Position numbers and translations under genes: made by a program. Below the pieces are notes generated by a model. It was not told where the DNA came from. It saw only the letters and a list, made by a program, of their open reading frames with translations, and searched no databases. DNA of 64,000 nucleotides, taken from the NCBI RefSeq assembly GCF_003334305.1, contig NZ_QOWS01000003.1; one strand, written 5' to 3'. Position 1 is the stretch's first letter. Every line of letters starts with the position of its first letter. The DNA comes from Escherichia coli (GTDB taxonomy: Bacteria; Pseudomonadota; Gammaproteobacteria; Enterobacterales; Enterobacteriaceae). This document shows positions 4,482 to 57,910 of this stretch, in pieces.

Positions 4482-5783
<1,302 letters not shown>

Positions 5784-49838: not shown

Positions 49839-55390
<5,552 letters not shown>

Positions 55391-55392
55391 CA

Positions 55393-55734
55393 ATGCGAAT
55401 ATTTGTCTACGGCAGTTTACGCCACAAACAAGGCAACAGTCACTGGATGACCAATGCCCAGTTACTGGGCGATTTCAGTATCGATAACTACCAGTTGTAT
55501 AGCCTGGGCCACTATCCAGGCGCAGTTCCGGGGAACGGAACAGTACACGGTGAAGTTTATCGTATTGACAACGCCACGCTGGCCGAACTTGATGCCTTGC
55601 GCACCAGGGGCGGTGAATACGCGCGCCAGTTGATTCAGACGCCGTACGGGAGTGCATGGATGTACGTTTATCAACGACCCGTCGATGGATTAAAGCTAAT
55701 TGAAAGCGGCGACTGGTTAGACAGGGATAAGTAA
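55393..55734 (+). CDS. ytfP: gamma-glutamylcyclotransferase-fold protein YtfP
   Basis: 113-aa ORF beginning YGSLR. Confidence 0.88.
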   Translation: MRIFVYGSLRHKQGNSHWMTNAQLLGDFSIDNYQLYSLGHYPGAVPGNGTVHGEVYRIDNATLAELDALRTRGGEYARQLIQTPYGSAWMYVYQRPVDGLKLIESGDWLDRDK

Positions 55735-55745
55735 TAATAAAAGCA

Positions 55746-55770
55746 CGCCACCTTCGGGTGGCGTTGTTTT
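55746..55770 (+). terminator. Rho-independent terminator after ytfP
   Basis: cgccacc ttcg ggtggcg hairpin followed by ttgtttt. Confidence 0.6.
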
Positions 55771-56113
55771 ATGCGATGTATCTCGCGATTTTTTTTTGTA
55801 ACTTTTCCATCTTTTGCTTTTCTCTCCGAGCCGCTTTCCATATCTGCAATCGCATAAAAAACTCTGCTGGCGTTCACAAATGTGCAGGGGTAAAACGGGG
55901 GCACGCTTTGAACGGTGAGTATGAGTGAGGTCGGCTAACTTCCAGCAAGTGGCTATGAACAGCAAAATGGTGGTCGGGTTTGCTTGTTCTTACCGTTCAA
56001 GCCTTGCAACCGCTGAGAATAATGATGGTGGAATAGAGAGTTTATTTATCGCGGGCATAAAAAAACCCTTACTAACCGAAGCCCGGCGTTCAGGGTTATT
56101 GCGCTAGAAGAAC

Positions 56114-56644
56114 TTATTTATTCTTTGCGCGCTCGAAGGAAGCAACGATTTCAGCTTTAGCGGCTTCTGCGTTTTCCCAACCTTCAACTTTCACCCACTT
56201 GCCTTTTTCGAGGTCTTTGTAGTGCTCGAAGAAGTGAGCGATCTGCGCTTTCAGCAGCTCTGGCAGATCGTTAACGTCTTTAATGTGATCGTATTCTTTG
56301 CTCAGCTTTGTGTGCGGAACAGCAATCAGTTTCGCATCTTCACCGGCTTCGTCGGTCATTTTCAGAACGCCAACCGGACGGCAACGGATCACAGAACCCG
56401 GCTGCAGCGGGTACGGAGTCGGGACCAGTACGTCAACCGGGTCACCGTCCAGAGACAGGGTGTGGTTGATGTAACCGTAGTTGCACGGATAGAACATCGC
56501 GGTGGACATGAAGCGGTCAACGAACAGTGCGCCGCTCTCTTTGTCGATTTCGTATTTGATCGGATCTGCGTTAGCCGGGATCTCAATAACAACGTAGATG
56601 TCTTCCGGCAGATCTTTACCCGCAGGGACGTTGAGTAAGCTCAT
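56114..56644 (-). CDS. ppa: inorganic pyrophosphatase
   Basis: 176-aa ORF. Confidence 0.97.
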
Positions 56645-56953
56645 GTCTGTTTCCTTTAAAAATATGTGGCAAACAAGTGCCGAGTATTATAGCCAACTCG
56701 CGCCGAATGTCTTTGCTTGTTTTCGTCTTCATTTTCCTTTTTCGCCAGTTTTAAGACGGTATACAGAGCAGGAAAATCCATAACCGTAGCCGCATTTTTC
56801 ATAGTGAGATGAAAGCGATTACAAACTTGTGATTAACGTTTTATTTACTTTTTTGAAGTGTGATGTAACGCAATCCGTTACATAACGAATTGTCTATAGT
56901 TTTTTCGCGAACATCTTTTCACCAATAATAATTACCCCGACGAGGACAACCCT

Positions 56954-57910
56954 ATGTGGAAACGCTTACTTGTAGTCTCTGCAGTCTCGGCAGCCATGTC
57001 GTCTATGGCGTTGGCCGCTCCATTAACCGTAGGATTTTCGCAGGTCGGATCGGAATCCGGCTGGCGCGCTGCAGAAACCAATGTAGCGAAAAGTGAGGCC
57101 GAAAAACGCGGAATTACGTTGAAAATTGCTGATGGTCAGCAAAAGCAGGAAAACCAGATTAAAGCGGTACGTTCCTTCGTTGCACAAGGGGTGGATGCGA
57201 TCTTTATCGCTCCGGTGGTCGCGACAGGTTGGGAACCGGTATTAAAAGAGGCGAAAGATGCCGAAATCCCGGTCTTCTTGCTCGACCGTTCCATCGATGT
57301 GAAAGACAAATCTCTCTATATGACCACCGTTACTGCCGACAACATCCTCGAAGGTAAGTTGATCGGTGACTGGCTGGTAAAAGAAGTGAATGGCAAACCA
57401 TGCAACGTGGTGGAGCTGCAGGGCACCGTTGGGGCCAGCGTCGCCATTGACCGTAAGAAAGGCTTTGCCGAAGCCATTAAGAATGCGCCAAATATCAAAA
57501 TCATCCGCTCGCAGTCAGGTGACTTCACCCGCAGTAAAGGCAAAGAAGTTATGGAGAGCTTTATCAAAGCGGAAAACAACGGCAAAAACATCTGCATGGT
57601 TTACGCCCATAACGATGACATGGTGATTGGCGCAATTCAGGCAATTAAAGAAGCGGGCCTGAAACCGGGCAAAGATATCCTCACGGGTTCCATTGACGGT
57701 GTACCCGATATCTACAAAGCGATGATTGATGGCGAAGCGAACGCCAGTGTTGAACTGACGCCGAATATGGCAGGTCCCGCCTTCGACGCGCTGGAGAAAT
57801 ACAAAAAAGACGGCACCATGCCTGAAAAGCTGACGCTGACCAAATCCACCCTTTATCTGCCTGATACCGCAAAAGAAGAGTTAGAGAAGAAGAAAAATAT
57901 GGGGTATTGA
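56954..57910 (+). CDS. ytfQ: galactofuranose ABC-transporter periplasmic binding protein
   Basis: 318-aa ORF with signal peptide and sugar-binding-protein fold. Confidence 0.93.
   Translation: MWKRLLVVSAVSAAMSSMALAAPLTVGFSQVGSESGWRAAETNVAKSEAEKRGITLKIADGQQKQENQIKAVRSFVAQGVDAIFIAPVVATGWEPVLKEAKDAEIPVFLLDRSIDVKDKSLYMTTVTADNILEGKLIGDWLVKEVNGKPCNVVELQGTVGASVAIDRKKGFAEAIKNAPNIKIIRSQSGDFTRSKGKEVMESFIKAENNGKNICMVYAHNDDMVIGAIQAIKEAGLKPGKDILTGSIDGVPDIYKAMIDGEANASVELTPNMAGPAFDALEKYKKDGTMPEKLTLTKSTLYLPDTAKEELEKKKNMGY

Follow-up and report, generated by a model that had tools for sequence, protein, structure and literature searches.

The 64,000-nucleotide stretch of Escherichia coli DNA analysed here (hereafter the window; contig NZ_QOWS01000003.1) carries the genes tamB, ytfP, ppa and ytfQ in that order, and our subject is the 379-bp gap between ytfP and ppa (55735-56113). 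In E. coli K-12 this site holds chpS-chpB (chpBI-chpBK; hereafter chpSB), described as a toxin-antitoxin module of type II belonging to the MazEF/PemIK family, whose toxin, ChpB, acts as an mRNA interferase (Masuda et al. 1993; Zhang et al. 2005; as related in PMC7167474 and PMC6096937). The original prediction, made from the letters of the window, started from this map position and proposed that an interval of roughly 340 bp between the two genes held terminator hairpins and no plausible gene pair. The map position was correct, as a K-12-type locus used for comparison (L001) has a ytfP-ppa gap of 886 bp with both chpS (1054-1305) and chpB (1299-1649) inside it. The interval had been drawn too short, its start at 55771 lying 36 nt inside the gap, and its contents are not terminators only: about 250 of the 379 bp are chpSB debris, made up of a leader and a fragment of chpB (Table 1). 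We consider it very probable that the gap is a scar allele, that is, the non-functional relic of an Escherichia-type chpSB that suffered two deletions and then decayed neutrally.

Anatomy of the ytfP-ppa gap

None of the open reading frames (ORFs) overlapping the gap exceeds 82 aa, and none resembles ChpS or ChpB. An intact toxin ORF of the MazF/PemK family (~116 aa) was not found in 55735-56113, nor was an antitoxin ORF of the AbrB/MazE type upstream of or overlapping a toxin, and tblastn with ChpS and MazE gave no match in the gap. Across the whole 64 kb, tblastn returned no full-length match to ChpS, ChpB, MazE or MazF. The sole relevant match aligned ChpB residues 15-42 with 55930-56013 (14 of 28 identities, with an internal stop), and the top ChpS match was a chance similarity within tamB (E 0.035). 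In alignment with K-12, the whole chpS coding sequence is missing from the window. The ORF list and the tblastn searches over the 64 kb thus bear out the prediction that the gap holds no plausible chpS/chpB ORF pair and, judged from its sequence, neither ChpS nor ChpB protein can come from it. Coding sequence resembling chpSB, which the prediction had not expected there, is formally present, yet as a dead fragment and not as a gene, and the absence of a module stands.

The segment 55735-55897 corresponds by homology to roughly the first 163 of the 211 bp that separate ytfP from chpS in K-12, and it is 85-94% identical to chpSB-positive Escherichia loci. Sequence like its distal part, which we term the leader, is limited to taxa that have chpSB or a remnant of it (Lelliottia, Enterobacter asburiae, Citrobacter sedlakii and Kluyvera) and is absent from empty sites, indicating that the leader travels with the module. 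The leader ends at a deletion of ~310 bp that took all of chpS, codons 1-6 of chpB and a palindrome, AGTTATAC-TTT-GTATAACT, which in K-12 lies directly before the chpS Shine-Dalgarno sequence and, by its position, may be the autoregulatory operator. This left junction is identical across the scar alleles examined, including that of E. albertii. Microhomology at the junction (GGGGTAAA or TTTG) was considered and could not be established, as the ~9 nt at 55898-55906 align unreliably.

The chpB remnant that follows is 72.4% identical to K-12 chpB over 127 nt (blastn E 4.6e-15), and its alignment score was reached by none of 1,000 dinucleotide-preserving shuffles. Read in the chpB frame, it is interrupted by TGA at 55916-55918, by TAA at 55936-55938 and by three 1-nt indels. 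It is bounded on the right by a second deletion of exactly 198 bp, in frame, between the two copies of a 6-bp direct repeat, TGGTGG, that K-12 chpB carries at codons 47-49 and 113-115. Codons 49-114 are gone, one copy of the repeat is left, and the last codon and stop of chpB survive beyond it.

Over first, second and third codon positions, the 29 substitutions that separate the remnant from K-12 chpB are distributed 9:9:11. In functional chpB from other genera, compared with K-12 in the same way, most differences fall at third positions (5:4:21, 4:4:22, 9:2:24 and 4:4:24). The even spread in the remnant indicates that its divergence built up without coding constraint. In local alignment the remnant scores 78-84 against Escherichia chpB and at most 24 against chpB of Lelliottia, Enterobacter, Kluyvera, Pseudocitrobacter and strain RIT691, which rules out derivation from the chpB of another genus; it also carries Escherichia-specific residue states (PASG.EQQ, VQA) and not those of the other genera. 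This closest similarity to Escherichia chpB points to decay in place from an Escherichia-type gene. By its homology, its disabling lesions and its unconstrained substitutions alike, the remnant is recognizable as a chpB pseudogene.

Small ORFs in the gap, among them 55925-56107 (60 aa) and 55758-55928 (56 aa), were rejected as genes because they are not conserved among scar alleles, the 60-aa one being frameshifted in B2-type scars and losing its start in E. albertii. The scar carries no feature annotated by the Prokaryotic Genome Annotation Pipeline (PGAP), and no Rfam family matched the gap in a search of 55300-57000 at a permissive threshold; an S15-leader match inside ppa was discarded as sub-threshold (16.8 bits against a gathering score of 39.5). 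A scan for promoter-like sites in 55600-56300 was negative, a result of little weight given that the same scan also missed the chpS promoter in the K-12 locus.

Both edges of the gap have terminator-like structures. The ytfP terminator (stem 55745-55764 plus T-run) has a folding free energy (dG) of -24.5 kcal/mol and a z of -4.22, and its hairpin is kept in essentially all of 80 ytfP loci that we fetched from other Enterobacteriaceae species. The K-12 equivalent of the weaker hairpin behind it lies at 880-895 of L001. On the ppa side, the terminator-like hairpin (56057-56100, minus strand) has arms at 56064-56069 and 56092-56097 and a U-run encoded by 56057-56063. The spacer that contains it, 86-94% identical to chpSB-positive Escherichia, is also conserved in C. 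amalonaticus, Raoultella, C. sedlakii and S. diarizonae.

Table 1 Features of the window between tamB and ytfQ
Feature	Position	Strand	Basis or remark
tamB	51611-55390	+	First gene of the local order
ytfP, gamma-glutamylcyclotransferase family, 113 aa	55393-55734	+	Upstream flank; ORF, named from genomes 100% identical here
ytfP intrinsic terminator	55745-55771	+	8-bp GC-rich stem, 4-nt loop, T-run; terminator scan and fold
Weak second hairpin, then T9	55772-55797	+	Within the spacer common to K-12; terminator scan and fold
Retained chpSB leader, ~119 bp, ending ...GGGGTAAAACG	55779-55897	+	K-12 alignment
Left deletion junction GGGGCACGC	55898-55906	+	Alignments; breakpoint somewhere within, not placeable exactly
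chpB pseudogene remnant, 125 bp, codons 7-48, MazF/PemK-family toxin	55907-56031	+	blastn, tblastn, alignment
Right deletion junction, single TGGTGG copy	56026-56031	+	Alignment; every scar allele has this junction
Last chpB codon GAA and stop TAG (TAA in K-12)	56031-56036	+	Alignment
chpB-ppa spacer with ppa terminator-like hairpin	56037-56113	-	Fold and inverted repeat
ppa, inorganic diphosphatase, 176 aa	56114-56644	-	Downstream flank; ORF and annotation in identical genomes
ytfQ	56954-57910	+	Beyond ppa

Distribution and age of the scar

To place the window among other strains, we counted alleles in 5,426 complete E. coli genomes, with the scar junction represented by a 201-bp segment matched at a coverage of at least 80%. 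The chpS coding sequence was present in 3,098 genomes (57%), as was, in the same number, the 3' part of chpB that is deleted in the window; with these counts equal, no half-deleted intermediates are evident. The scar junction was present in 2,322 genomes (43%), about 2,047 of them at an identity of at least 99%. When the scar segment and chpS were combined into a single query, 5,420 genomes matched, which is the sum of 3,098 and 2,322, so that no genome carries both. At megablast sensitivity, no K-12-like chpS was found elsewhere in the ~2,322 scar genomes. The scar is an ordinary, common allele, one of the two major alleles of E. coli at this site.

A third arrangement involves esiB, a 1.47-kb gene of extraintestinal pathogenic E. 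coli (ExPEC) that can follow ytfP and encodes an SLR-repeat protein binding secretory IgA. It was found in 188 of the 5,426 genomes, giving frequencies of 57% for chpSB, 3.5% for esiB and about 39% for neither. In the two esiB loci examined (strains A37 and E400634), esiB comes right after ytfP and the same chpB scar lies downstream of it, behind a second, duplicated copy of the ytfP terminator. The esiB-carrying E. coli loci L004 and L007 have esiB between two diverged ytfP terminator hairpins, ACGCCACCTTCGGGTGGCGT and ATGCCACCTGCGGGTGGCGT; these two copies are probably the 'short direct repeats with partial inverted symmetry' of Pastorello et al. 2013, and the chpB scar follows intact. CFT073, Nissle 1917 and ATCC 25922 likewise have the scar allele on the downstream side of esiB. 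The window lacks esiB, and its gap is collinear with esiB-free genomes.

Rarer arrangements also occur. Variants of the locus included one with IS1 inserted in the scar and one with a bgl-type island adjoining ppa. In strain N50 (L008, 1-2506), a cerebrospinal fluid isolate that belongs to the six or so genomes lacking both chpS and the scar, genes for a beta-glucoside phosphotransferase system IIABC component and a glycoside hydrolase family 1 (GH1) glycosidase abut ppa and replace ytfP and the scar. The chpS matches numbered 3,099 in total, three of them on plasmid-labelled records, and one genome had two copies. Strain HH45 (L089, NZ_CP116411.1, 1207-1718) has an odd gap of 512 bp, the only one of its kind among the 5,426 genomes (82% match). 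It shows the left and right junctions of the scar type, an inner ~90 nt of the remnant identical to K-12 chpB and, preceding the remnant, ~130 nt of C/G-rich sequence like a corrupted 3' half of chpS, with a partial PemK/MazF pseudogene annotated by PGAP. We considered this gap, the only candidate, as a less-decayed intermediate and set it aside; an artefact of assembly or polishing, or else a rare recombination event (gene conversion), probably explains it, and it is not used as evidence here.

Outside E. coli, chpSB occupies the same site in four of the six non-coli Escherichia genomes examined, as well as in Lelliottia, Enterobacter asburiae, strain RIT691, two Pseudocitrobacter and one Kluyvera. 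In the non-coli loci chpS starts 213-218 nt past ytfP, and in the other genera ChpS and ChpB are 63-78% identical to those of K-12. Decayed copies were found as well. In Citrobacter sedlakii (L031, 3340-3686), as in the Escherichia scar, a leader is retained at the same site and fused to a decayed chpB fragment, but the codons kept are ~64-115 rather than 7-48; the different breakpoints indicate that the two losses were independent. In Enterobacter cloacae (L037, ~5052-5168), a chpS fragment adjoins ppa behind an insertion of ~1.9 kb. As these loci read, chpSB has decayed at the ytfP-ppa site more than once.

Within Escherichia, the same junctions and lesions recur in window-type, B2-type and esiB-linked scars, as well as in the type strain of E. 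albertii and one further non-coli Escherichia, which points to a single origin of the scar. Between the window and A37 the scar has diverged by 5.6% and the flanking genes show a synonymous divergence (dS) of 0.03-0.06, which points to a roughly neutral rate of change for the scar in this species. Between the window and E. albertii the scar differs by 12.8%, with a dS of 0.20 for ytfP and ppa and of 0.535 for tamB. The scar is ~27% away from every extant Escherichia chpB, and those genes differ from one another by 1.6-4.7% at the same codons. On these distances, and with the differences independent of codon position, the scar branch may have gathered about 0.25-0.3 neutral substitutions per site, a value comparable to or above one branch of the split between E. 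coli and E. albertii, and we estimate that the loss of chpSB would be roughly as old as the genus Escherichia.

The two alleles do not differ evenly along their length. Identity between alleles is 85-94% in the leader and in the spacer next to ppa and 72% in the remnant. This is most simply explained by recombination that homogenizes the flanks up to each indel; a segment trapped between two indels could not be converted without a switch of allele. A single genome of a non-coli Escherichia, whose tamB has a dS of 0.458 from the window, has a scar just 4% different and a leader differing by 18%, indicative of mosaic exchange between species. Homologous recombination acting in the conserved flanks would have moved both alleles between lineages.

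Origin of the scar and competing explanations

A plausible course for the decay can be proposed. The 198-bp in-frame deletion, or one of the nonsense mutations, would have inactivated the toxin first; with the toxin dead the antitoxin would have become dispensable, and the second deletion could then have been tolerated. The transcripts of ytfP and ppa would end at their own terminators on either side, and the scar itself would be expressed neither as a protein nor as a functional RNA.

Several points weigh against this account or soften it. Since none of the 5,426 genomes had an allele with just one of the deletions, which of the two came first is something that we infer. The left breakpoint is not exactly placeable, with no demonstrable microhomology there. 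The dating rests on about 110 aligned nt and on a local dS that is uneven (0.2 for ytfP and ppa, 0.535 for tamB). That the source strain would lack chpSB beyond the 64 kb is expected from the population-wide exclusivity of the two alleles. Finally, the remnant coincides closely with a hairpin inherited from chpB (see below), so there is a slight chance that its retention served some purpose.

A further reading concerns the polymorphism itself: intact chpSB and the scar would form a very old trans-species polymorphism in which balancing selection, not drift and inter-species recombination, keeps both alleles at intermediate frequency. We regard this as improbable. If it were true, the locus would be a natural experiment on the purpose of a chromosomal MazF-family module, with a possible trade-off between a benefit of ChpB in phage defence or stress and its cost. 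In a weaker variant of the same reading, the retained leader and hairpin would act as a functional RNA.

That last notion can also be taken by itself, with the leader and remnant co-opted so that the ~90-nt hairpin serves as a small RNA, a stabilizer of the 3' untranslated region or an extra ytfP terminator; this would account for the survival of just this piece. There is a structure to consider: the plus strand of 55898-56040 folds with a dG of -47.9 kcal/mol (z -2.34; 3 of 200 shuffles as stable), the minus strand is unstructured (z -0.72), and the left edge of the remnant coincides with the base of the stem. The same hairpin is formed by intact K-12 chpB (z -2.46) and by B2-type scars (z -2.41), the 13-bp stem at its base being conserved and showing one compensatory pair (G-U to U-A). 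Its presence in the intact gene inclines us to see it as inherited from chpB, not new. Across seven scar and five chpB sequences, only 1 of 28 pairs is compensatory; in the E. albertii scar, two neighbouring pairs of the stem are disrupted and the fold has no excess stability (z 0.03). The divergence of the scar within E. coli is close to the synonymous rate of its flanks, the gap has neither a promoter-like site nor an Rfam match and has lost the putative operator and -10 region of K-12, and it contains no conserved ORF, the 60-aa one being broken in B2-type and E. albertii scars. We therefore consider co-option as an RNA very unlikely.

In Escherichia chpB mRNA, the hairpin lies in the 5' third. 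In K-12-type chpB it spans codons 7-43 (L001 1317-1428; window 55907-56015), has a dG of -53 kcal/mol (z -2.46 for a 143-nt segment) and rests on a perfect-looking 13-bp basal stem, TTTGAACGGGGAG / CTCTCCGTTCAAG. The chpB homologue of Enterobacter asburiae does not form the Escherichia hairpin.

It is scarcely credible that the gap is an ancestral empty site, with chpSB gained in K-12 by insertion and the chpB similarity of 55907-56031 fortuitous, as the original prediction implied. Such an account would fit the lack of an ORF pair, and chpSB-free ytfP-ppa gaps are indeed found in many Enterobacteriaceae. Real empty sites, however, are 99-170 bp long and contain just two terminators, without leader or chpB codon (Citrobacter, Klebsiella, Enterobacter and Salmonella diarizonae among them), whereas the window has 379 bp with both the chpSB-specific leader and the terminal codon of chpB. 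The remnant, moreover, is collinear with chpB at a similarity that none of the shuffles reached, and it has the Escherichia-specific residue states; the alignment is no low-complexity artefact. That the missing chpSB reflects a collapsed or mis-joined assembly or a sequencing error has next to no credit with us: nothing specific speaks for it beyond the corrupted look of the HH45 gap in one public genome, and the junction segment recurs in the 2,322 independent complete genomes counted above, most of them at an identity of at least 99%, with 24 kb around the site 100% identical to several complete genomes (including H15, A7, 41 and WL164).

Other features of the window and comparison with known systems

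Three features elsewhere in the window are recorded here, each with reference to the near-identical genome H15. The gene aidB (isovaleryl-CoA dehydrogenase / adaptive-response protein; 14073-15699, plus strand) has a 1-nt G insertion at ~14456, GAGG to GAGGG, relative to H15. The insertion causes a frameshift near codon 128 and leaves two ORFs, 14055-14714 and 14380-15699, in place of one gene; either aidB is a genuine pseudogene in this strain or a homopolymer was misread in sequencing. A block of ~10 kb (27059-36830) extends from rplI to a LysM-domain gene on the ytfB side. In the H15 annotation, it encodes a three-gene tripartite ATP-independent periplasmic (TRAP) transporter, a 693-aa FAD-dependent oxidoreductase, a 513-aa CoA transferase, an enoyl-CoA hydratase, a sugar-phosphate isomerase/epimerase, a 3-ketoacyl reductase and a TetR regulator. 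The large permease of the transporter is intact in the window (28083-29384) and interrupted by IS3 in H15. The block is not known to occur at that position in K-12. A YagU-family gene, also after the H15 annotation, lies between ulaF and yjfY (24280-24831, plus strand).

The window strain, like ~43% of sequenced E. coli, would be without one of K-12's two MazF-family mRNA interferases, which is of little consequence for this genome. The genes chpB and chpS are treated as accessory in pan-genome studies (PMC6096937, PMC5422975), and an unannotated chpB fragment in 'chpSB-negative' strains could mislead PCR, k-mer typing or pan-genome association that uses chpB or chpS as a marker. The scar also allows the loss to be dated roughly, to about the depth of the genus, and two cleanly separate alleles, without intermediates among the 5,426 genomes, offer a handy natural contrast for asking whether ChpSB affects fitness at all.

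That chpBS can be absent from this locus has been known since 2013. According to Pastorello et al. 2013 (mBio; PMC3735183), the site holds esiB in 15%, chpBS in 53% and neither in 32% of 47 genomes. The window belongs to their 'neither' class, and our frequencies of 57%, 3.5% and about 39% for chpSB, esiB and neither resemble their 53%, 15% and 32%. In the text consulted, that report deals in gene presence and absence and mentions no chpB remnant; here, the 'neither' class and both esiB loci examined carry the scar. Literature searches found no published description of a chpB remnant or pseudogene at ytfP-ppa, an earlier mention being possible. What is added here is the anatomy of the scar, its mutual exclusivity with chpSB, its occurrence in E. 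albertii and an independent scar in Citrobacter.

Set beside the K-12 module, the window has the same site and retains a leader and a chpB-ppa spacer that are 85-94% identical to chpSB-positive Escherichia. It differs from K-12 in having no antitoxin gene, no operator palindrome and no toxin start, with codons 49-114 of the toxin deleted and the remaining codons 27% diverged.

In E. coli, deletions and nonsense mutations are recognized to degrade chromosomal toxin-antitoxin modules, the model case being ccdO157 (PMC7167474, which cites Mine et al. 2009 and Fiedoruk et al. 2015). As summarized there, ccdO157 (Mine et al. 2009, Genetics) is likewise a chromosomal type II module at a fixed intergenic site, intact or degraded depending on the strain, and its decay has been interpreted as the loss of a dispensable, selfish module. 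The recurrent, independent decay of chpSB in another genus supports the view that chromosomal toxin-antitoxin modules are dispensable and prone to decay (PMC7167474). The two systems differ in toxin, CcdB as against the MazF/PemK family, and in locus, and chpSB stands apart in existing as two sharp alleles, the dead one of which is shared with E. albertii.

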